In this document: positions 2,039 to 49,695 of the stretch, piece by piece | How positions within the stretch are numbered: position 1 is the first letter of the stretch | Layout of the letters: every line of letters starts with the position of its first letter | From: a virus | DNA: 64,000 nucleotides | Strand: one strand, 5' to 3' | IMG/VR virus record: IMGVR_UViG_3300047160_002519 | Span: 9,234-73,233 of that record | Notes under the pieces: model-generated | Database searches by the model: none | Told to the model about the DNA's origin: nothing | What the model saw: only the letters and a program-made list of their open reading frames with translations | Position numbers and translations under genes: made by a program

Positions 2039-2787
2039 CAGACACCACCATCAACCAAGCCGACAACACGCAAACCGCTGCGGGGCAGATGTTTCCGGAG
2101 GACTACGCTAACGAGTTCGCGGTGATTTCATTCATCGTTCGCCAAGCCCTGGCCGAGATGGAAACCTGCACGCCGGTGCAGGTCAAGACCGTGCATGCGG
2201 GCAGCGGCAACCCGGCGGCGGGCGGTACGGTCGATGTGCAGCTTCTGGTCTCGCTGCTCGATGGCAACGGCAACGCCACCAAGCAAGGTGTCGTCTATGG
2301 GCTGCCCTACTTCCGGATGCAGAGCCAGAACTGGGCGATTGCGATGGACCCGGCAGCCGGAGACTACGGCTTCATCATCGCGGCCTCGCGCGACATCTCG
2401 AACGTCACCAAGACGCCGGGGCAAGCGAATCCGGGCAGCTTTCGGCAGCATTCATTCTCGGACGGTTTCTTCATTCCGTGCTCGTTCAACACCGCGACCC
2501 CGGGCGGCTACATCCAACTCAAAAGCGACGGCAGTCTCAACATCAACACGAAAGACGGAGTCGTGATAAAAAGCGACGGATCAGGCGCGCTGACGATCAC
2601 GACCCAGGGGAATGCGACGGTGAACTGCGGCAGCAACACCCTCGATGTCACGGCGACCACGACGACGATCCATGGCGATCTCAACGTCACGGGCGACGTC
2701 AAGGCGAAGTCCGGCGGCGCGACCTTCGTCCGGCTGTCGACGCACACCCATCCAGGCAACAATCTTTCCCCGAATCCAGGGACATGA
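2035..2787 (+). CDS. Gp138-family baseplate central spike
   Basis: ATGA overlap start at 2035; N-terminal GTVDVQLL..LPYFRMQ..DPAAGDYG..RDIS OB-fold region, beta-helix and C-terminal HTH (His-x-His) iron-binding tip motif. Confidence 0.85.
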   Translation: MTDTTINQADNTQTAAGQMFPEDYANEFAVISFIVRQALAEMETCTPVQVKTVHAGSGNPAAGGTVDVQLLVSLLDGNGNATKQGVVYGLPYFRMQSQNWAIAMDPAAGDYGFIIAASRDISNVTKTPGQANPGSFRQHSFSDGFFIPCSFNTATPGGYIQLKSDGSLNINTKDGVVIKSDGSGALTITTQGNATVNCGSNTLDVTATTTTIHGDLNVTGDVKAKSGGATFVRLSTHTHPGNNLSPNPGT

Positions 2788-2788
2788 G

Positions 2789-3178
2789 ATGGCATCGACC
2801 CTCTTCCTCGATCCGGTGGCGTGGGACCTGACGCTCGATGTCAATCTCAACATCGCAGTCGCCCCGGAGCCCTACGCGCTGGCGCAGGATGCGGCGAGCG
2901 CGATCAAGACGTTCCTGGGCGAGGTATACTGGAACACGCAGATCGGCGTACCCTACTTCCAGCAAATCTTCGGCTTCGCCCCGCCGGTGGCGCTCCTGAA
3001 GCAGTACCTCGTGCAGGCGGCGCTGACGGTGCCGAACGTGGCCTCGGCGCAAGTCTTCCTGGCAAGCCTGGACCCGACGACTCGGATACTCTCCGGGCAG
3101 GTCCAGCTTGTGAGCAAGACGGCCCAGGGTGGGGCGGCGAACTTCACGGTCGGCACTCTGACGGGAGGAGCGCATTAG
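2789..3178 (+). CDS. Baseplate wedge / gp25-like protein
   Basis: LDPVAWDLTLD..GEVYWNTQIGVPYF motif; start reassigned to ATG 2789. Confidence 0.75.
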   Translation: MASTLFLDPVAWDLTLDVNLNIAVAPEPYALAQDAASAIKTFLGEVYWNTQIGVPYFQQIFGFAPPVALLKQYLVQAALTVPNVASAQVFLASLDPTTRILSGQVQLVSKTAQGGAANFTVGTLTGGAH

Positions 3179-18887: not shown

Positions 18888-19446
18888 ACCGGACAGCGCG
18901 GTCATCCGTGTTGTCCTGATCGGAGAGCCGAAGGGCAAGGATCGGCCGCGCTTCCGGATCGTCAAGCCGAAGTGCAAGCAATGCGCTGGCAGAGGCTGCT
19001 ATAATTGCAGGGGTACCGGGCGAGGCCCGGAGTTCGTCAGCGTCTACACCACCAAAGAAACCCAGCAATACGAGGCCGCGCTGAAGCTCGCGGCCAACGT
19101 CGCCATGCGGCGGCGAGCGCCGCTCGAAGGCCCGCTGCGCTGCATCGCTACCGCGATCATCGAAGTGCCGCAGTCTTGGTCGGGCAAGAAAAAGAGGGAT
19201 GCGCTGCACGGCATGATCCGGCCGACAGTTGCGCCCGACTGGGACAACTACGCGAAAATCCTCGACGCCTTCAACGGCACGGTCTGGATCGACGACAAGC
19301 AAGTCGTCGAGGGAGGCGTAATGAAGTGGTACGGCACCACCCCGCGCTTCGAGATCGAGGTAGCGGAAATCAAGCCCTTGGGGCTCTTTTCCACGGAACA
19401 CACAAGCCTCGCAGAGCGGCTGGACTGTCCTCCCGCGACGCGGTAA
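18880..19446 (+). CDS. rusA: RusA-family Holliday junction resolvase with Zn-finger insert
   Basis: GEPKGKDRPRF, PDWDNYAKILDAFNGTVWIDDKQVV motifs. Confidence 0.9.
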   Translation: MAEPDSAVIRVVLIGEPKGKDRPRFRIVKPKCKQCAGRGCYNCRGTGRGPEFVSVYTTKETQQYEAALKLAANVAMRRRAPLEGPLRCIATAIIEVPQSWSGKKKRDALHGMIRPTVAPDWDNYAKILDAFNGTVWIDDKQVVEGGVMKWYGTTPRFEIEVAEIKPLGLFSTEHTSLAERLDCPPATR

Positions 19447-19490
19447 GCCGAATCTTGGGGCTACCCCGATTCGGGGAAGATCGTCTCTTC

Positions 19491-20105
19491 ATGAAGCACG
19501 CGCCGAACATCGCATTCGACGGATTGCCCCTGCGCCATTTCGGCGCGATCGTCGCTGATCCACCCTGGAATTGGAAAAGCTATCGCGATGATATCGGCAG
19601 TAGATCGGCCGCACGGCATTATTCCGTGATGCAGCTTTCCGAGATCAAGATTTTGCCAGTGGCAAGCCTGACAGCGCCGACCGGCTGCCATCTGTTTCTC
19701 TGGACCACGGGTCCTCACCTCCAGCAAGCCTTTGAAGTGATCAATGCCTGGGGCTTCAAGTACTCGTCCGTCGCGTTCACGTGGCTGAAGCTCAAGCGCA
19801 GGTTCGAGAAGCCGCAACTGCGCTTCGTGTCCGACCTGACCCACGATTTCCACTTCGGTCTCGGCAAGACAACCCGCAAGAACATGGAGTTCTGCCTGCT
19901 CGCCCGGCGCGGCAACGCCCGTCGACTCGCGACCGATGTGCGCGAGCTAATCATCGCGCCAGTGCGCGAGCACAGCCGCAAGCCAGATGAAGCCATGGAG
20001 CGGATCGAGCGCTATAGCGTCGGGCCCTACCTCGAATTGTTCGCGCGCACCGAGCGGCCCGGCTGGACATCCTGGGGAAACGAGAGGGAGAAGTTCAATG
20101 CTTAA
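19491..20105 (+). CDS. MT-A70 family N6-adenine methyltransferase
   Basis: IVADPPW, HLFLW, AWGF, EHSRKP, YLELFAR, WGNE. Confidence 0.92.
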   Translation: MKHAPNIAFDGLPLRHFGAIVADPPWNWKSYRDDIGSRSAARHYSVMQLSEIKILPVASLTAPTGCHLFLWTTGPHLQQAFEVINAWGFKYSSVAFTWLKLKRRFEKPQLRFVSDLTHDFHFGLGKTTRKNMEFCLLARRGNARRLATDVRELIIAPVREHSRKPDEAMERIERYSVGPYLELFARTERPGWTSWGNEREKFNA

Positions 20106-36025: not shown

Positions 36026-36174
36026 TCCCCTCCGTCGCCAGGGCTCCACGCTCGAAGCGGCTTCATGAGAGACCCCAGGCCCTCCGGGTGTGATGCCCCT
36101 ATCCGGAGGGCCGTCTTGTGTCCGCATTCGCGATCTGCGATCTTGAAAAAGAATCAAGACGTGGGGAATCAAAG

Positions 36175-39100
36175 ATGGCGAACGGTTGGGGTGGACACCG
36201 CAACGGCTCCGGGCGCAAGCGCACGCGCTCCAATGTGATTCCCTTCAAAGCCAAGCCGAAGCTGATCGAGGCCACGGCGATCGAGCGGCCCCGCCCGATG
36301 TTCTCCGACGAATCGGTGCGGCTGATCATTGAAGCGATGAGCGAGCAGCAAGGGCGGGCGCGCAACCGGCCCCGCACGCCCGATTGGAATCCGTACATCA
36401 TCCGCCAGCATCTCTTCGGTGCATCTGCGAATCACATCGCGAGGCACAAGCCACAGATGGCAATGGATGCGAACCCGGCGCTGGCGGACGCCAACGCGGT
36501 CGCGGTGCAGGCGTGGCAGACCGGCGGGCTCGCGGGCAATGACGCGGCCGAAGGGCTGCTGTTCCTGGGCTACCCGTTCCTTTCCGAGATGGCGCAACGT
36601 GCGGAGTTTCGGCTGTTCGGGGAGATCATGTCAGAGGAGATGACCCGCAAATTCATCGACTTCAAAGGGACTGACGACGAATCCACAAAGGATGAGAAAA
36701 AAGACAAGGACAAGGGTCGCGAGGATGATGATGAGCGCGATCAAGACGACATGGCCGGTGATGAGGCCCCGCAACCGCTGTTCGGGGAGGACCCCCTCAA
36801 GCAGGAGGGAGCCGACCCGCTTGGACAGAAGCGCGATGACCCCGAGACCGACAAGGATGAAAAAGAGGCCCGATCCGACGATCGCAATAAGGAGATCGAA
36901 CGCAAGATCGTCGAGCTTCGCGAGTTCGCTGACGACATCAAGCTGCGTCAGGTTTTCAAGATGCTGGCGCAACACGACAGCCAGTTCGGGATCGGTCATC
37001 TCTTCCTCGACTTGAAGGGCGCGAACCTCGACGATCCGCGCGACCCCGAGAACCGGATGGACATTGGTGACGGCCGCAATGACGTCTCGAAGTCCAAGCT
37101 ATCACGGAACTGCTTGAAGGGGCTGCGCACGATCGAGCCGGTGTGGTGCTATCCGACGCTCTACAACGCGACCAATCCGCTGCACCCGTCATGGTACGAT
37201 CCCCAGGTCTGGTACGTGATGGGAAGCGAGATTCACAAGTCGCGACTGATCCCGCTGATCGGCCGCCCGGTGCCCGACATCCTGAAGCCCGCCTATGCAT
37301 TCGGTGGATTGCCGATGACGCAGATGGCGCAGCCCTACGTCGATATCTGGCTGCGCACCCGGCAGAGCGTCGCGGAGATCATCCACGCCTTCTCGGTAAT
37401 GGTGCTGCAAACCAACATGGGCACCACGGTGCAGCCGGGCGGATCGAGCGGCGGCGCGGGCGACGTCGTGGCGCGGATGATGTTGATGAACGCGCTGCGC
37501 GACAACCAGGGCATGATGATCATCGACAAGAGCACCGAGGACTTCAAGAACATCTCGGCTCCGCTCGGCACGCTCGATCAACTGCAGGCGCAAAGCCAAG
37601 AGCACATGTACAGTGTGGCGCGTATCCCGGCGGTAAAATGGACCGGGATTCAACCCCAAGGTCTCAACGCCACGAGCGAAGGCGAAATGCGCGCCTTCAA
37701 CGATACCATCCACGGCTATCAAGAGCAGCTATTCAGGACGGCGCTCAACACCATCGTCGACATCATGATGATCTCGCTGTGGGGCAAGCGGGACCCAGAC
37801 ATCACGTTCGATTTCGCGGCGCTGCACGAGTTGACCGAAAAGGAGCAGGCCGAAGTCGAGAAGATGAAAGCCGAGACCGCGCAAATCCGCGTCGACTCGG
37901 GGATCGTCAGCCAGGAGGAGATCAGGGGCGTCTTGGTCGCGGACCCGGATTCGGATTTCCACGGGTTGGACCCGGAGGACACCCCAGACCTGCTGGGAGA
38001 GGAGGAACAAGGCCTCATCCCCCCAGGCGCAGGGAAGGCCGAACAGGGCATCCTGGGCGCGGGGGGTGCAGGTGGACCGCCCCAGCCCGGAAAGCCCCCA
38101 GGCGGGCCGCCCCAGGGCGGCAAGGGGCCTTTCAACGCGCCTGCCAAGCCCAAGCGGGCACCAGCATTCGGCAAGGACGAAGCCCTGGGCCTTGGAACCG
38201 CGTTCCAAGACGCCGAGGGCAAGGACAAGCTCGGCTACTTCGAAGGCCTGGGCAAATTGGAGGTGATCCCGGACAAGGACCAATGGCACGCGGAATACAT
38301 CAGCGACTCTGACACAATCGAGGTGCAGCGAAAGCTGACGTTCGACCCAGCACAAGAGATCGTCCGGACCTTGCTGCACGAGGCCGGTCACCGGGGCCAG
38401 ATGCGGGAGGACAAGGCGGCCTTCCGGAGGTTCAAGAAGGCCAAGCTCGATACCACAGAGCACTTCGTGGCGCTGGCGAACAACGTCCACCTCGCGGACT
38501 TCCGCTGCACCGGGCACATCGAGGACAAGTCGGGCGAGATTTTCTCGGAGAGCTATGCGCACTGGTGTCTCGACATGCCAATGCCGGAGAAGCTGCAGCG
38601 GTTCTGGGACCGCGAGGGCGGTGATCCGATGGCGATGGATGCCGAGTGGGATGAGAGCAAGCATCCGCGCGATAAGAGCGGCAAGTTCGGCTCCGGCGGC
38701 GGGGGTGGGGCAAAAAAAGCTGAAGGCGCGGGAGCCGCCAAGCCAAAAGCCTCCCACCACGGCGGGCCGAACGCGAGCCCGCAGAAGCCGTTCGCTCCGC
38801 TGCACCCGTCGAGCCTGACGAAGGTCTCGGGCAAGATGGGATCGAACGAGGGGGGCGTCTACAAGGACAAGGGCGGGCAGGAATACTACGTCAAGCAACC
38901 GAAGTCGGCGGCACACGTCACCAACGAGAACACCGCTGCGCGGCTCTACCAACTCACGGGCGCGCATACGCTCGAATACATGGATGCCGGGCCGAAACAC
39001 GTCGCGACGAAGCTGGAGAAGCTCGTCGCGAACAACGTCAGCCAAATGACGTCCGAGGAGAAAAAGACCGCGCAAAAGGACTTCATGACGCACGCATGGC

Positions 39101-44318: not shown

Positions 44319-46757
44319 ATGATCCCGCAGCTATCCACCGTTCCGAATGCAGGACTCCCGGCGGGCTACCGCAAGAAAACGCCCAACGGCAACGCGCGCA
44401 TGGGCGCGGGGATCATGTTCACGAACGACGAAGGCAAGGCGCTGTTCGTTCGCCGCAGCAAGGAGGCAAGCGATCACCAGGGTGAGTGGGCTTTTCCTGG
44501 CGGTCACGTCGAGGAAGATGAGGAGCCCGCAGATGCAGCTCGTCGAGAGGCCATGGAGGAGGTTGGTCATATCGAGGGGTGGGACCTTGCGCCGATCCAC
44601 CGCGAGACCTCGAATGAGGATCACGTGGATTTCACGACATTCGGTCAGCCTGTCTCAATGGAGTTTAAGCCCCGCCTCAATCATGAACACGATGCCCATG
44701 AATGGTGCGATCCTGCTCATCCTCCTGAGCCTTTGCACCCCGGCGTTGCTTCTTTGCTTGCTCGCTTTTTCAAGGAGGAAGCCCGAGAACCAGAGCACGC
44801 GGGAGACCAAAGAATGAAGGCGGCCAAGAAGGACGTCGCCTACACCGACTACGCCTCGGACCAATCCGAGCGCTGCGGCATCTGCCGCGCCTTCAATGAG
44901 GACAAGTGCAAGAAGGTGGCGGGCGTCATCGAATCGTCCGGGTGGTGCAAGCTGTTCTCTCACGTCCCGATCGGCGCGACTGATTCGCAGTTGGTCCTGG
45001 CGCTAGATGCCACGGTGCGGAGTTTCGACACGGACGGCCGGATGCGGGTGAGCCGGACCAACATCTCGAAGGCGACCGTCAATCCGTACCGGGGCGAGGA
45101 AATCCCGACCTGGGAGGCGCTCGGCCTGATCCCCGACAAGGTCTATCAGATGTATCGCCCGGCGCATGAACTGGCGCTCGGCGCAAAAACGTTCAACAGC
45201 GTGCAACTGCTGAAAAAGCACACGCCAGTGGACATCGAAGATCACAAGATGTGGGACATCGTAGGCACCACCGGGAGCGACGCGGAGTTCGACGGGACCT
45301 ACCTGACTAATTCGCTTTCGGTGTGGGCGAAGGAAGCGATTGACTTCATCGAGTCCGGGGCACAGCGGGAGTTGAGCTGCGGCTATCACTATGTCCCGGT
45401 AATGACACCCGGCATCTTTGATGGTAAGCCTTACGACGGTGTCATGACCCAGATCGAGGGAAATCATGTCGCTCTCGTTGAGGAAGGCAGGGCGGGGCAC
45501 GACTGTGTCGTCGGAGACTCGGCCCTCTCTCAGAGGGACAGCAAGATGACCAAGCCAACTCGCCTCGAACATGCAGTCCTAACGCGCACTGCATCTGCGA
45601 TCAATCCGCTTCTTGCCAAGGACGCCAAGGTCAACTACGCCCCGCTGTTCAAAGGGCTCACCACCAAGAATTTCAAGGAACGCAGGCCCGCCATCGTCGA
45701 GGGCATGCGCAAGCTGATCAAGGGCAAGACGATTGCCCAGGACGCCTCGATCGAGCATCTGGCGCATATGCTGGATCACTTCGAGCACGCACCCGCGATT
45801 GCGGACGAATCGGTGTCCGGTTCGCAGCACCGCGCCATGGAGGCGGCGGCGCACGGCCACTCGACGCTCGGCATCCCGAAAAATGTGGGTGAGGAGTTCT
45901 CGAAGGCCGACAAGGGAAAGACGTTCGGGGACATGATTCGCGACTGGGCGGCCGCGAAGGACTGGAATGCCGGAATGTCCGATGACGACTTCTCGGCTTT
46001 GGACAAGATGCACTCCGACTGCAAGGATGGAGCCATGGGCGGACGCGACAAAGAAGAGACCCCCGAGGAATTCGAGAAGGCCGAGCACGAGATCGGTGGA
46101 GGCGAGGATCGCCGCGCTGATGACCGGCGAGGAGGCCGCGACCGGCGAGGCCACGATCGCCGCGCCGATGATGAGGAGGAGGAAGGCGGCGAGGAATTTG
46201 GCAAGTTTCATGAGAAGGAAGGCGAGGACGAATGGGAGGACAAGGAGGACGAGGGCGAGGATCAACTCGAAAACCTCGGCTCCGCTGCCCGCGACCGTCG
46301 CGCCGACGACCGGCGAGCGGATGATCGTCGCGATGCGCGCGATCGCCGCGATGGCTATGATCGCAAGGGCGGCCGTGACAAGAAGGGCGCGAAGGATGCC
46401 GCGCTGACCCAGGATTCGGTCAACAAAATGATCGAGGATGCCAGGATGCAGGAGCGCAGGCGGGCCAAGAACGCCAACGCCGCGCGCGAGTTCATTCGGC
46501 CCTATGTCGGTGCCGTCTCGATGGCGCTCGATTCCGCGGAGCAGGTCTTGCGGGCTGGCGCGAAGGCGCTGGAGATCGAGAATGCCGACAAGCTGCACCC
46601 GGACGCGCTCAAGCCGCTGATCAAGATGACCGGCGACATGCGGATGCGGCGCGTGGAGTATAATGGCGGCGAACTGGCGATGGACACCGATATGAAGGAT
46701 GACGGTATCGCCAAGTTCAACAATATGTTCGGGGCAGACCGCATCAAGACGGTCTGA
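44319..46757 (+). CDS. Nudix hydrolase - HiPIP-like - DUF2213 prohead protease - scaffold fusion
   Basis: Nudix box GHVEEDEEPADAARREAMEEVG; CGIC..C..VAG.I...GWC; DUF2213 NISKATVNPY, RELSCGY, NHVALVEEGRAG; acidic/DRR repeat scaffold. Confidence 0.9.
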   Translation: MIPQLSTVPNAGLPAGYRKKTPNGNARMGAGIMFTNDEGKALFVRRSKEASDHQGEWAFPGGHVEEDEEPADAARREAMEEVGHIEGWDLAPIHRETSNEDHVDFTTFGQPVSMEFKPRLNHEHDAHEWCDPAHPPEPLHPGVASLLARFFKEEAREPEHAGDQRMKAAKKDVAYTDYASDQSERCGICRAFNEDKCKKVAGVIESSGWCKLFSHVPIGATDSQLVLALDATVRSFDTDGRMRVSRTNISKATVNPYRGEEIPTWEALGLIPDKVYQMYRPAHELALGAKTFNSVQLLKKHTPVDIEDHKMWDIVGTTGSDAEFDGTYLTNSLSVWAKEAIDFIESGAQRELSCGYHYVPVMTPGIFDGKPYDGVMTQIEGNHVALVEEGRAGHDCVVGDSALSQRDSKMTKPTRLEHAVLTRTASAINPLLAKDAKVNYAPLFKGLTTKNFKERRPAIVEGMRKLIKGKTIAQDASIEHLAHMLDHFEHAPAIADESVSGSQHRAMEAAAHGHSTLGIPKNVGEEFSKADKGKTFGDMIRDWAAAKDWNAGMSDDDFSALDKMHSDCKDGAMGGRDKEETPEEFEKAEHEIGGGEDRRADDRRGGRDRRGHDRRADDEEEEGGEEFGKFHEKEGEDEWEDKEDEGEDQLENLGSAARDRRADDRRADDRRDARDRRDGYDRKGGRDKKGAKDAALTQDSVNKMIEDARMQERRRAKNANAAREFIRPYVGAVSMALDSAEQVLRAGAKALEIENADKLHPDALKPLIKMTGDMRMRRVEYNGGELAMDTDMKDDGIAKFNNMFGADRIKTV

Positions 46758-46797
46758 GACGTCGCGGTAACCGAGAACACGGCAGAGGAGAATCGAG

Positions 46798-47766
46798 ATG
46801 CCCGGCGGATTCCAGACGCAAGTCTACAATCAGGAAGCCCAGGCCGTAGCAGGCGACCGCGCTTCGCAGAACCCGATCGCGACGCTCGATGCAGGGCCCG
46901 GCGGACTGATCGCTGATCCCGGTGGCATCATCATCGGTAACTTCGCCTGGACCACGCCCCCGACTGATCCAGACGGCTCGAACAGCTACGCGACCCAGGT
47001 CAACGGCGCGGGCAATGTTGCTGGCCTTGCCTACAATTGGACGCAAGGGCTCAACACGGTGTTCTTGTCGGACGCCTCGATGCTGATCCCGCAGGGCTTG
47101 CCCGTGGCGCTGGCGGTGCAAGGTGATTTCTGGGTGGTGAACAACGGCTCTACGTTCGCTGCCCCAGGACAGAAGGCGTTCGCGGCCTTCGGCACCGGCG
47201 CAGTGTCGTTCGGCGCGGCGGGCTCGGTCACGGTGACCTCGGCGGCGTCGGGCTCCTCGATCGCGGCCTCGACCTTCTCGGCTACGGGCTCGATCCAGAA
47301 TGACATCATGACGATCACGGTAGTCGGCGCTGGCACGCTGGTTCGTGGTGCGACGATCTCCGGCACCGGCATCAACGGCTCACCGACGATCACCGGGCAG
47401 TTGAGCGGCACTCCGGGCGGCGTCGGTACCTACACGATCTCCCCGAGCCAGCAGAAGGCGATCGCCTCCGAAACCATCTCGGGCACCTACGGCACGATGA
47501 CGGTCGGCACGATGACGACGGGCACGGCGTTCTCGGTCGGGCAGACGCTGCAGGCGACTGGCGCGGTGGTTGCGGGCACGCAAATAACGCAGCTTTTGAC
47601 CGGCTCCGGCGGCAATGGCTCGACCTTCGCGGTGAACAACAACACCGTGGTCTCGTCCCAGGTCATCAATGCGCTTGGCGCTGCCGAAACGAAGTGGACG
47701 GCGGCGAGCGCGGGCAATCCGGGCGGCTTGGTCAAGATCACGTCGTGGGTAGGCTCGCAGGGCTGA
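46798..47766 (+). CDS. Head decoration/cement (minor capsid) protein with beta-module insert
   Basis: GFQTQV..AVAGDRASQNP, GDFWV motifs; directly upstream of MCP. Confidence 0.8.
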   Translation: MPGGFQTQVYNQEAQAVAGDRASQNPIATLDAGPGGLIADPGGIIIGNFAWTTPPTDPDGSNSYATQVNGAGNVAGLAYNWTQGLNTVFLSDASMLIPQGLPVALAVQGDFWVVNNGSTFAAPGQKAFAAFGTGAVSFGAAGSVTVTSAASGSSIAASTFSATGSIQNDIMTITVVGAGTLVRGATISGTGINGSPTITGQLSGTPGGVGTYTISPSQQKAIASETISGTYGTMTVGTMTTGTAFSVGQTLQATGAVVAGTQITQLLTGSGGNGSTFAVNNNTVVSSQVINALGAAETKWTAASAGNPGGLVKITSWVGSQG

Positions 47767-47799
47767 CTTTAGACAGGGCGGCTTAGAGGAGAAGCAAGG

Positions 47800-48951
47800 A
47801 TGGAACCCATCAGCATCAGGTCCGTGGATGAGGGCCGCGCCCTGTTTCGGCAACACCGGCAGTACCTCGCGGATCGCGGTGTACATTTGCCCTATCAGAT
47901 GCAGCGCTATCTCACTGACAGGGAGAAGGCGACGGGCAATCTGATCATGGCGATGGACGCCCCGAACCCGCCGATCGCACCGATGGGCGCGCTGCCCGGG
48001 CCGCTGTCGAGCGACCCGAACGCGGCGCTGCCGTGGATGCTGACCTCGGCTATCGACCCGGAGATTATCCGGGTGATCTTCTCGCCGCTCGATTTCGCGG
48101 AAATCCTGGGGGAGAGGAAGGCAGGCGACTGGACCGAACAGACCCGCTTCTTCCCGCTCGTTGAGGCGACCGGCGAGGTGTCGAGCTACGACGACTTCGT
48201 CAATAACGGCCGCGCCGGGGCGAACTTCAACTACCCGCAACTGCAGAGCTACCTGTTCCAGACCATCGTCAACTACGGCGAGTTGCAGATCGCGCGCGCT
48301 GGCTTGGCGAAGATCAACTGGGTCTCGGAACTGGGGCTGGCAGCGGCGGATCTGCTCAATCGCTTCCAGAACCTCTCCTATGCGTTCGGCGTGGCAGGCC
48401 TGCAGAACTACGGCGTGATGAACAATCCCTTTATCTCGTCCGCGCTGACCCCGGCAACGAAGGCCTGGGGCGGAACCGGGTGGTTCAATGCCGGATCGCC
48501 CGCGGCGACCGCCAACGAAGCCTACAATGACATCGTCGCGATGGTGACGCAGTTGGTGGCGCAGACCAACGGCGCGATCAACATCAAGGACTCGATGACG
48601 CTGGCGATGAGCCCGCAGAGCGAGATCGCCATGACCTTCGCGAACAGCTTCGGCGTTTACGTCGAGAACCTGCTCAAGAAGGGCTACCCGAACCTGAAGG
48701 TCAAAACGGCCCCGCAGTACGGCCAACAGAACACGAATAACCCGCAGGGCTACTCGGCCGCTGGTAACGTGCTGCAGCTTTGGCCGGACAAGATTCAGGG
48801 ACAGACGGTGGTCTACGCGGCCTACAATGAGAAGCTGCGCAGCCACAAGATCATTCCGGACCTGTCAAGCTGGAAGCAAAAGCAGACCTCGGGCACGTGG
48901 GGTACGGTCATCCGCATGCCGGTCGGCTTTGTCACAATGATTGGTGTTTAG
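47800..48951 (+). CDS. Major capsid protein (DUF2184 type)
   Basis: IDPEIIRVIFSP, KAGDW, GEVSSYDD, GLQNYGVMNNP, QKQTSGTWG; AMDA near N-terminus. Confidence 0.92.
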   Translation: MEPISIRSVDEGRALFRQHRQYLADRGVHLPYQMQRYLTDREKATGNLIMAMDAPNPPIAPMGALPGPLSSDPNAALPWMLTSAIDPEIIRVIFSPLDFAEILGERKAGDWTEQTRFFPLVEATGEVSSYDDFVNNGRAGANFNYPQLQSYLFQTIVNYGELQIARAGLAKINWVSELGLAAADLLNRFQNLSYAFGVAGLQNYGVMNNPFISSALTPATKAWGGTGWFNAGSPAATANEAYNDIVAMVTQLVAQTNGAINIKDSMTLAMSPQSEIAMTFANSFGVYVENLLKKGYPNLKVKTAPQYGQQNTNNPQGYSAAGNVLQLWPDKIQGQTVVYAAYNEKLRSHKIIPDLSSWKQKQTSGTWGTVIRMPVGFVTMIGV

Positions 48952-49088: not shown

Positions 49089-49370
49089 ATGCGTAAGATT
49101 ATTTTTGCTTTTGGAGTGTTTTTGACTTTTGCAGCATCTCCCGCAGCCGCGCAGTGCGGCTGCGGTGGTTTCCAGCCTTGGCCGAGCGGCTGGGGCAATG
49201 CTGGTTATGACGCGGATGGCTACGGACAATCCGCGGCCGTGACAGTCATCGCGCAGCCCGGATTCGGTGGCGGCTGGGGCGGTGGCTGGGATGGACGGCC
49301 CTGGGGCTGGCGTGGCGGCTACGGCTGGCGCGGTGGCGGATGGGGCTGGCATCGCCGGGTGGTGTGGTAA
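49089..49370 (+). CDS. Secreted Gly/Trp-rich small protein
   Basis: Signal peptide ending AAA-Q; GWGGGW repeats. Confidence 0.6.
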   Translation: MRKIIFAFGVFLTFAASPAAAQCGCGGFQPWPSGWGNAGYDADGYGQSAAVTVIAQPGFGGGWGGGWDGRPWGWRGGYGWRGGGWGWHRRVVW

Positions 49371-49398: not shown

Positions 49399-49695
49399 AT
49401 GAGGAAAGCAATCGAAGCAATCGTCCTGGCGGCGGGCCTTGTGCTCGCCGCTTCGCCCGCCTGGGCGCAGCAAGGCCAGGGCGGGCTCTACATCGATGAG
49501 AACGGCGCGGTGATCACGAGCCCGAGCCATGGCTACGGCACCGAGCGACGCGGCAACGGCTACGAGCGCGGCAGCGTCTATGTTGGCCCGCGCGAACCTG
49601 TGGTACACCGCGACGGCTACTACCATCGCGGCTACGGCTACGAGCGGCACCATTACCACCCCTACCGCCATGCCGTGCCCTACGGAGGCTACTGA
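49399..49695 (+). CDS. Secreted Gly/Tyr/His/Arg-rich small protein
   Basis: Signal peptide ending AWA-Q; GYERG/GYERH repeats. Confidence 0.6.
   Translation: MRKAIEAIVLAAGLVLAASPAWAQQGQGGLYIDENGAVITSPSHGYGTERRGNGYERGSVYVGPREPVVHRDGYYHRGYGYERHHYHPYRHAVPYGGY

Follow-up and report, generated by a model that had tools for sequence, protein, structure and literature searches.

Proposed Head-Maturation Cleavage Motif in the Head Gene Module

A short motif, [L/I/M/F]-[A/G]-x-Asp, was found repeatedly in the head proteins of an uncultured phage, and it probably marks the places at which the head-maturation protease of this phage, a DUF2213-family enzyme, cuts after Asp: in the capsid propeptide, the portal arm, the MuF-like minor head protein, and both the protease and its scaffold, as well as at the joints of enzymes that are fused to these proteins (herein referred to as cargo). 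The analyzed window comprises 64 kb (bases 9234–73233) of the 73,233-bp virus record IMGVR_UViG_3300047160_002519, which has direct terminal repeats and is rated 100% complete; the window thus holds 64 kb of approximately 73 kb. All genes of the head module are located on the plus strand, in the order portal, MuF, DUF2213 protease-scaffold, decoration protein, and capsid (Table 1), and their names are backed by Pfam and PHROGs matches. The motif is most likely the cut site of the head-maturation protease because the capsid protein of a cultured relative starts right after the matching motif.

Evidence from Cultured PB1-Like Phages

In a tblastn search, the capsid protein matched 534 phage records, all with less than 60% identity, including 299 records of Pseudomonas phages. 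The PB1-like Pseudomonas phages (Pbunavirus: PB1, KPP12, E217, and Pa193) have the same gene order of portal, MuF, DUF2213, decoration, and capsid, and the motif is found in them at aligned places. Thus, SAMD (Asp64) of the PB1 capsid protein gp24 aligns with the capsid MAMD of the studied phage, VAMD of the portal gp18, ending at residue 76, aligns with portal site 1, and FAKD of gp19 aligns with the MuF site. For KPP12, the N-terminal sequence of ORF23, the major virion protein, was published in a figure legend (PMC3474789). This sequence corresponds to residues 65–84 of PB1 gp24, directly after S-A-M-D64, so the mature capsid protein begins right after the motif Asp. A cut exactly after the aligned Asp is therefore a published result for the capsid of a PB1-like relative; we infer the same cut for the studied phage and for the non-capsid sites, with DUF2213 as the enzyme.

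According to the same legend (PMC3474789), the N-terminal sequence of the KPP12 decoration protein, ORF22, begins at Met1; it corresponds to the start of PB1 gp23. In the decoration protein of the window, which served as a negative control, only V-A-G-D was found, at residues 17–20. This tetrapeptide is probably not cut and is likely a false positive, because in the virion the homologue from PB1/KPP12 still has its initiator Met.

In the E217 paper, capsid residues 1–65 are described as invisible, with the chain seen from residue 66, and as "cleaved during maturation or disordered." In the Pa193 paper, the first 93 portal residues are reported absent from both the map and the liquid chromatography–mass spectrometry data. 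The same paper terms gp24 of Pa193 a putative scaffolding protein. This protein (PDB 9b40_G) matches the DUF2213 protease domain of the window (phmmer against PDB, E 6.3e-9) and, thus, represents a protease-scaffold fusion. The residual helix-turn-helix seen in the Pa193 capsid is probably a cleavage product. The passages available from the KPP12, E217, and Pa193 papers state no cleavage rule, and the available KPP12 text contains no word beginning with "cleav." No published capsid N-termini for Aeromonas phage 56 or Acinetobacter phage IME-AB2 were found in the open literature.

Conservation of the Motif in Capsid, MuF, and Portal Proteins

Among the 8000 candidates scored, 3371 database homologues of the capsid protein were found at E ≤ 1e-10, and the best 120 of these (64–93% identity) were used. 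All 120 have Asp at P1, directly before the proposed cut, and Leu, Ile, Met, or Phe at P4. P3 is occupied by Ala in 99 homologues, by Gly in 18, by Val in two, and by Ser in one, and P1′ is Ala in 108. The length of the linker after the site varies among the relatives. Tandem duplicates of the site, such as LAMDS..LGMDAP, were found in several of them (P0001–P0010 and P0013), and the capsid protein of Aeromonas phage 56 (L073) has the doubled site MAMD↓N..LAMD↓A, where the arrow marks the proposed cut.

A scan of IMG/VR with the capsid profile provided 67 related loci. The tetrapeptide [LMI]-A-x-D was found in one column of the MuF alignment in 43 of 43 homologues, with mostly Gln or Met at P2, and [MLI]-A-x-D was found in one column of the portal arm in 32 of 32 homologues, just upstream of the conserved portal start. 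In total, Asp is present in the same column in all 195 homologues of the capsid, MuF, and portal proteins, amid flanks that vary. The relatives give the consensus [L/I/M/F]-[A/G]-x-Asp.

As a separate observation, six MuF homologues (L024, L028, L029, L031, L033, and L068) have an insert of about 90 residues right after [LMI]-A-x-D, as if modules had been added at the cut site.

Motif Counts in the Window

In the window translated in six frames, MAMD was found at exactly four places, each of them in the reading frame of a head gene. Since the copies use different codons for Ala and Asp, the repeat exists at the protein level, with selection acting on the protein, and a DNA-level repeat as the source of the copies was ruled out. 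An origin of MAMD as alternative start codons was also ruled out, since the relatives have Leu or Ile at the first position.

Expected counts were obtained from within-protein shuffles (2000 each). In the head proteins, four copies of MAMD were observed vs. 0.03 expected, and none of the 2000 shuffles reached four. The strict form of the motif, [LIM]A[MFLY]D[AS], was found six times in 3335 amino acids (aa) of head proteins (0.09 expected) and not once in 12,400 aa of the other predicted proteins of the window. The form [LIM]A.D was found 11 times in the head proteins vs. 3.3 expected, a count matched by a single shuffle in 2000, and nine times in the non-head proteins, with no excess over the 9.8 expected. 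Loose forms gave much smaller differences. Thus, [AG]-x-D was found 57 times in the head proteins vs. 43.7 ± 5.7 expected, with 26 of 2000 shuffles reaching 57, and A.D was found 33 times vs. 23.5 expected. Of the 57 [AG]-x-D matches, 21 are located in the scaffold part beyond residue 435, 13 of them within a charged stretch rich in Arg, Asp, and Glu (residues 575–691). By these counts, a specific subset of the motif is real; the loose motif is barely above chance and alone predicts almost nothing, and most of its scaffold matches are background.

These loose counts, together with the many scaffold matches in charged repeats and the decoration VAGD, which is probably no site, are what could be expected if Ala- and Asp-rich head proteins simply yielded A-x-D often and matches had been picked near domain borders. 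As an account of the motif as a whole, this composition effect is extremely improbable: it is opposed by the excess of MAMD and of the strict form, by the Asp column shared by the three sets of homologues, and by the enrichment next to the cargo tag described below. Chance is excluded for the strict sites and stands for most loose matches.

A first-pass annotation of the window, made from its letters and open reading frames (ORFs), had proposed [AG]-x-D at the domain junctions of all head proteins, with cleavage by the DUF2213 protease behind each Asp and the resulting release of every accessory domain. All strings quoted in it (MAMD four times, AFGKD, AFQD, PAGD, HAGD, GATD, and LALD) were found where it had placed them. 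The mention of all head proteins was an overstatement in view of the decoration protein. Enrichment beyond chance holds for the strict form and for [LIM]A.D but is only marginal for [AG]-x-D. Cutting by DUF2213 is favored for the MAMD-type sites by their conservation and by the published N-terminus of one relative, while [AG]-x-D is too uninformative to predict sites. Of the many scaffold motifs listed there, sites of the same kinds as LAKD, IAQD, MALD, and LAMD recur in the scaffolds of the relatives, and most scaffold matches are background, many of them in charged repeats.

DUF2213 Protease and Its Flanking Domains

The Pfam family DUF2213 (PF09979) was found on residues 234–401 of the protease ORF with 157.7 bits (cut-off 22 bits), and the ORF matches phrog_2229, head maturation protease, with E 9.3e-106. 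Three candidate catalytic residues, proposed from their conservation, are His301, Ser353, and His383, which are invariant in 58 of 58 sequences; they correspond to H80, S132, and H162 in a 42-sequence alignment and are invariant there too. An AlphaFold2 (AF2) model built on the latter alignment has a mean predicted local distance difference test (pLDDT) score of 90, with values below 50 for the first ten residues, which include LALD. The best structural match of this model in VIA-align was the T4 protease gp21 (5jbl_B; Z 10.7, root-mean-square deviation 2.9, 130 aligned), followed by herpesvirus proteases with Z of 6–8.8 (8.8 for the varicella-zoster virus protease). By this model, the DUF2213 domain is predicted to be a serine protease of the T4 gp21/herpesvirus assemblin fold.

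Upstream of the protease, Pfam NUDIX was found on residues 27–149. The probable site HAGD follows it, and relatives lacking the Cys-rich insert carry EPEH-A-x-(x)-D directly at the Nudix end, where the studied phage has HAGD. The insert, located at 44814–44960, is a HiPIP-like four-Cys domain that matches the HiPIP PioC (6xyv_A) on residues 166–214 (phmmer, E 5.5e-5). Such an iron-sulfur electron-carrier fold is odd in a phage head polyprotein, and several relatives lack it, having Nudix joined directly to the protease.

The start of the protease fold (DxDGRLxV) is preceded by [LIMVF][AGV]xD in 56 of 59 distinct DUF2213 homologues. A second [AG]xD within 14 residues upstream was found in 27 of the 39 homologues with more than 40 upstream residues vs. 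four of the 17 with short leaders. This tandem second site matches the arrangement GATD-x4-LALD of the studied phage and supports both GATD and LALD. In the scaffold tails of the relatives, one to four copies of the motif were found, including PLLAMDAK, RKGIALDAS, MA[LF]DSA, and, close to the C-terminus, a final xAMDA. When the entire protease ORF was used alone for scanning, only three matches were obtained in genome contigs, all to Nudix only, and none in viral contigs.

Cargo of the Portal Fusion

The portal ORF is likely to start at the ATG at 36175 (residue 20), because the database gene call (P0121) has 1539 aa and the relatives align from residue 20. Pfam Phage_portal_3 was found on residues 254–589 (E 9.4e-66). 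The protein can be read as a propeptide, a portal part with a linker and a zincin-like domain, a kinase-like cargo, and a cargo combining a winged helix-turn-helix (wHTH) region with an ADP-ribosyltransferase (ART).

The first cargo joint ends in Asp841, which is invariant in a 21-sequence alignment, with Ala839 nearly so. In an AF2 model of residues 815–1145 (mean pLDDT 81), MAMD-841 is located among model residues 20–29, with pLDDT below 50, while most of model residues 81–300 have pLDDT above 90. The best Foldseek match of the latter was Helicobacter pylori CtkA (3akl_C; E 3.4e-5, TM 0.43/0.50), with HipT-type kinases also near. An Atlas lead, to be taken as a lead only, was PI3_PI4_kinase on 16% of one cluster, and phmmer of the kinase-like piece against PDB gave no match. 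The model thus predicts a protein-kinase-like fold for this cargo. The second joint, PAGD-1118, is located in coil after the last helix of the model, where pLDDT drops from 97 to 77 and 61. Downstream of it, phmmer against PDB recognized the ART on residues 300–428 of the 440-aa piece (6dre_B, E 1.1e-5; Vis, 4xzj_A, E 0.0043), and many homologues carry PF03496.

Both joints are followed by a tag, FW-x-E-x-x-HPR-x3-G-K-F (herein referred to as the HPR tag), and FW-x-E-x-x-HPR-x3-G-x-F heads add-on modules in the portal and protease ORFs of the relatives. In the six frames of the window, only two HPR tags were found, both inside the portal fusion. Within six residues upstream of the tag, A-x-D was found in 41 of 54 distinct contexts outside the studied phage (76%) vs. 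5.7% of random positions in the same proteins; G-x-D was found in two of the 54 contexts vs. 8.6% of random positions.

The zincin-like domain itself could be thought to cut the cargo train by autoproteolysis in place of DUF2213. Its HEAGH (HExxH) signature is intact, the MAMD-841 joint is located only 39 residues past it, and an autoproteolytic role for the metallopeptidase (MPTase) domains of polyvalent proteins is proposed in the available part of Iyer et al. (2017) (PMC5512222). The match to PF18818 on residues 722–802 is, however, weak, with 19.7 bits against a cut-off of 27.5 bits. Moreover, the domain is absent from six of eight aligned fusion proteins, all six of which still have the A-x-D-plus-tag joint, and the motif marks the capsid, the portal N-terminus, MuF, and the scaffold in relatives without a zincin domain; PB1 has no fusion, and its capsid is cut after AMD. 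Because both the motif and the joints are found in relatives that lack it, cutting by the zincin-like domain is a poor fit and is considered highly unlikely.

For these regions, the first-pass annotation fared as follows. PAGD as a site agrees with its HPR-tag context, and GATD, LALD, and HAGD agree with the conserved tandem sites before the protease fold. AFGKD and AFQD are doubtful, since Ala is missing from P3 in both and they do not fit the consensus. Yet in P0122, the closest fusion relative, a canonical MAMD↓K is aligned with AFGKD, and Gly occupies P3 in 18 capsid sites; there may be a weak cut site in this region. Separate cargo would be released at the joints at Asp841 and Asp1118, but not every domain would be freed: the zincin-like domain would stay on the portal, and wHTH and ART would form one piece. 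Its domain calls hold for the kinase-like, ART, and HiPIP-like domains, while the zincin-like and DUF3489 matches remain below the Pfam cut-offs.

Proposed Processing of the Head Proteins

The motif, its excess, its positional conservation, the fold and invariant residues of the modeled protease, and the location of Asp841, Asp1118, and LALD in low-confidence linkers were all computed in this study. According to the proposed mechanism, DUF2213 would recognize [Leu/Ile/Met/Phe]-[Ala/Gly]-x-Asp in flexible segments within the assembled prohead and cut after Asp. The capsid protein would lose a propeptide of 53 residues, the portal would lose its N-terminal arm up to Asp117, and MuF would be trimmed after Asp54. 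The protease would be freed from its upstream part at Asp222/Asp230, and the scaffold would be dismantled at Asp435, Asp475, Asp738, and Asp789. Cuts at the cargo joints would release four pieces into the capsid: Nudix (to Asp163), HiPIP-like (to Asp222), kinase-like (842–1118), and wHTH plus ART (1119–1558). The last two would begin with the conserved HPR tag. With the well-supported sites alone, the zincin-like domain would not be separated from the portal, nor wHTH from ART.

Several points weigh against this mechanism. The one experimental N-terminus behind the motif is that of the capsid of a relative, as opposed to MuF, the protease N-terminus, and the cargo joints. All portal and MuF homologues were taken from a single collection (IMG/VR loci) by a single scan anchored on the capsid. 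The 50 N-terminal residues preceding the MuF site are also conserved, and the MuF motif could therefore serve another role. At the start of DUF2213, [LIMVF]-A-x-D is kept even with only 5–10 residues upstream, so it might be part of the domain and not a cut site. Foldseek alone gave weak matches for the protease model (herpesvirus proteases and T4 gp21, best E 8.2e-3). No [AG]-x-D was found in 11 of the 54 HPR-tag contexts, nine of which still have Asp there. Finally, an extended form of the motif was also found in two non-head ORFs, at 2879 (baseplate-like) and 19509 (methyltransferase-like); thus, the motif is meaningful only in context, that is, in a flexible segment inside the prohead. Window genes were predicted with a crude codon-usage caller (72 genes), which missed at least two real ORFs, both of them with extended-motif matches.

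Some of these points would also suit a different role of the motif, in which only the capsid and scaffold are cut at it, and in MuF, at the protease N-terminus, and at the cargo joints it acts as a docking or assembly signal, e.g., by attaching to the protease or scaffold so that proteins are recruited into the prohead, with the fusions staying whole in the virion. Experimental support is restricted to the capsid and, indirectly, the portal; the MuF N-terminus is conserved; and the DUF2213 motif persists with almost no leader. In addition, the polyvalent-protein paper (PMC5512222), in the part available, quotes the virion RNA polymerase of phage N4 as packaged unprocessed. On the other hand, a motif recognized by a protease could hardly escape cutting in a flexible linker, and the tandem second site is more common where a long N-terminal fusion must go (27 of 39 vs. 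four of 17). A portal ring with twelve uncut 700-residue trains would also, by reasoning alone, be an unusual load. Docking is regarded as unlikely, and cleavage by DUF2213 at all of these sites as the probable reading.

Features of the Head Gene Module

The features of the window discussed here are collected in Table 1. Outside of them, an 88-aa acidic ORF (40787–41053) has an 8-base overlap with the portal-ART fusion at the stop of the latter. No match for it was found in Pfam or PHROG, and its product could act as a partner of the ART or as an antidote to it. Three small ORFs in the head/neck block (41316–41648, 49089–49370, and 49399–49695) start with sequences resembling signal peptides and contain repeats rich in Gly, Tyr, and Trp (e.g., GGYGYGG and GGWGGGW).

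Table 1. Genes, domains, and proposed cut sites (↓) in the window.
Feature	Position	Strand	Remark
Portal-fusion ORF, 1558 aa from first GTG	36118–40794	+	phrog_146 portal
Portal site 1, M-A-M-D(117)↓A, in N-terminal arm	36457–36468	+	Cut would remove about 98–117 residues
AFGKD, AFQD in Gly/Pro-rich linker before zincin-like domain	38164–38178, 38200–38211	+	Doubtful sites
Zincin-like metallopeptidase domain (MPTase-PolyVal type)	38281–38523	+	HEAGH at 38377–38391
Site 2 and tag, M-A-M-D(841)↓AEWDESKHPRDKSGKF	38629–38640 (site), to 38688 with tag	+	Joint of portal part and kinase-like cargo
Kinase-like cargo domain, about residues 892–1114	38791–39459	+	AF2 model and Foldseek
Site 3 and tag, P-A-G-D(1118)↓TNPEWEALHPRGPGGKF	39460–39471 (site), to 39522 with tag	+	Joint of kinase-like and wHTH-ART cargo
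DUF3489-like winged-helix region, weak match	39586–39741	+	PF11994 on residues 1157–1208, 23.7 bits, below 29.5-bit cut-off
ADP-ribosyltransferase domain, C-terminal	40369–40755	+	phmmer against PDB
MuF-like minor head protein	42027–42809	+	Pfam Phage_Mu_F, E 2.7e-12
MuF site, M-A-M-D(54)↓S	42177–42188	+	Aligned motif in homologues
Nudix–HiPIP-like–DUF2213 protease–scaffold ORF, 812 aa	44319–46757	+	Pfam, PHROGs
H-A-G-D(163)↓Q after Nudix	44796–44807	+	Probable site
Tandem sites immediately preceding protease fold, G-A-T-D(222)↓S and L-A-L-D(230)↓A	44973–44984, 44997–45008	+	
DUF2213 protease domain	45018–45521	+	Candidate His301, Ser353 (LSCGY, 45372–45386), His383
Scaffold-part sites L-A-K-D(435), I-A-Q-D(475), M-A-L-D(738), L-A-M-D(789)	45612–45623, 45732–45743, 46521–46532, 46674–46685	+	
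Decoration protein	46798–47766	+	phrog_2122
Major capsid protein	47800–48951	+	phrog_264
Capsid site, M-A-M-D(53)↓A	47947–47958	+	Residues 1–53 probable propeptide
Baseplate-like ORF missed by gene caller	2645–3178		One extended-motif match, LAQD↓A
MT-A70-like DNA methyltransferase ORF missed by gene caller, DPPW motif	19005–20105		One extended-motif match, IAFD↓G

Implications

Head-maturation proteases with short recognition motifs are textbook knowledge for T4 and are known for the phiKZ-like phages. In the open literature, no stated cleavage rule was found for the large DUF2213 family, and no paper was found on Asp-specific prohead proteases. The DUF2213 family includes PB1-like Pseudomonas phages used in therapy cocktails. 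The proposed rule, [L/I/M/F]-[A/G]-x-Asp↓, would tie together three published observations, on the KPP12 capsid N-terminus, on the invisible residues 1–65 of the E217 capsid, and on the 93 residues missing from the start of the Pa193 portal. From this rule, the mature ends of the portal, MuF, protease, and scaffold in cultured phages can be predicted exactly, as can, for an uncultured phage, the enzymes carried in the head and their pieces: Nudix, HiPIP-like, kinase-like, and ADP-ribosyltransferase.

More tentatively, with the odds somewhat against it, the cut site followed by the HPR tag may be a grammar, both general and portable, by which enzymes are loaded into phage heads. Its cut-site half would co-evolve with the head protease of each phage, taking the form [LIM]-A-x-Asp in the studied phage and in PB1-like phages, and the tag half would be the new N-terminus of every released cargo, serving as a signal for retention or ejection. 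In that case, the proteome injected by uncultured phages would be readable from sequence, and the P3 specificity of DUF2213 would be tunable by lineage.

Comparison with Known Systems

Among the known systems, the PB1-like phages share the head gene order and the aligned motifs; PB1 differs in having no cargo fused to the portal or the protease and in that P4 can be Ser.

The T4 prohead protease gp21 cuts at Leu/Ile-x-Glu sites, and the T4 internal proteins IPI–III and Alt carry a capsid-targeting sequence. The studied system resembles it in the predicted protease fold, in the acidic P1, in the use of one short motif in the capsid, scaffold, and packaged cargo, and in the presence of an ART among the cargo. 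It differs in having Asp and not Glu at P1 and Ala/Gly at P3, in belonging to a different sequence family (PF09979), and in having its cargo covalently fused to the portal and protease, whereas T4 cargo is encoded by separate genes with an N-terminal targeting peptide. In its proposed operation, the system parallels the processing of T4 cargo, but it does not belong to the T4 system.

The proteases of the giant phages phiKZ, 201phi2-1, and SPN3US cut at Ser/Ala/Gly-x-Glu. Common to both are the small P3, the acidic P1, and the processing of many head and ejection proteins by one protease. Unlike the studied phage, the giant-phage systems have Glu at P1, a protease of the T4-like sequence family, and cargo in separate genes.

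Herpesvirus assemblin cuts at Val/Leu-x-Ala↓Ser sites. It has the same fold family, the same order of His, Ser, and His, and a fusion of protease and scaffold that cuts both itself and the scaffold; it differs in Ala at P1, which is Asp in the studied phage, and in having only 11–17% identity in structural alignments.

A further class is that of the polyvalent proteins, for whose cargo delivery together with the DNA is predicted (Iyer, Burroughs, Anand, de Souza, and Aravind, 2017; PMC5512222). As in the part of that account available, kinase-like, ART, and Nudix effectors, and a candidate zincin-like peptidase, are found on one polypeptide with a virion protein. Nudix and the HiPIP-like domain are located on the protease ORF, and portal, kinase-like, and ART domains on another, i.e., at least two effector-type domains with a virion protein. 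The phage is thus a member of the class of polyvalent or portal-fused effectors. Autoprocessing by MPTase domains, or assemblin-like domains at C-termini, is proposed in PMC5512222; neither a cut-site motif nor the HPR tag occurs in its searched passages ("hpr" and "linker" have no occurrences there). The studied phage departs from the polyvalent-protein account in that its joints carry the capsid's own cut motif. Also particular to it are a P3 of Ala or Gly and the direct connection with an N-terminus published for the therapy-relevant PB1-like phages.

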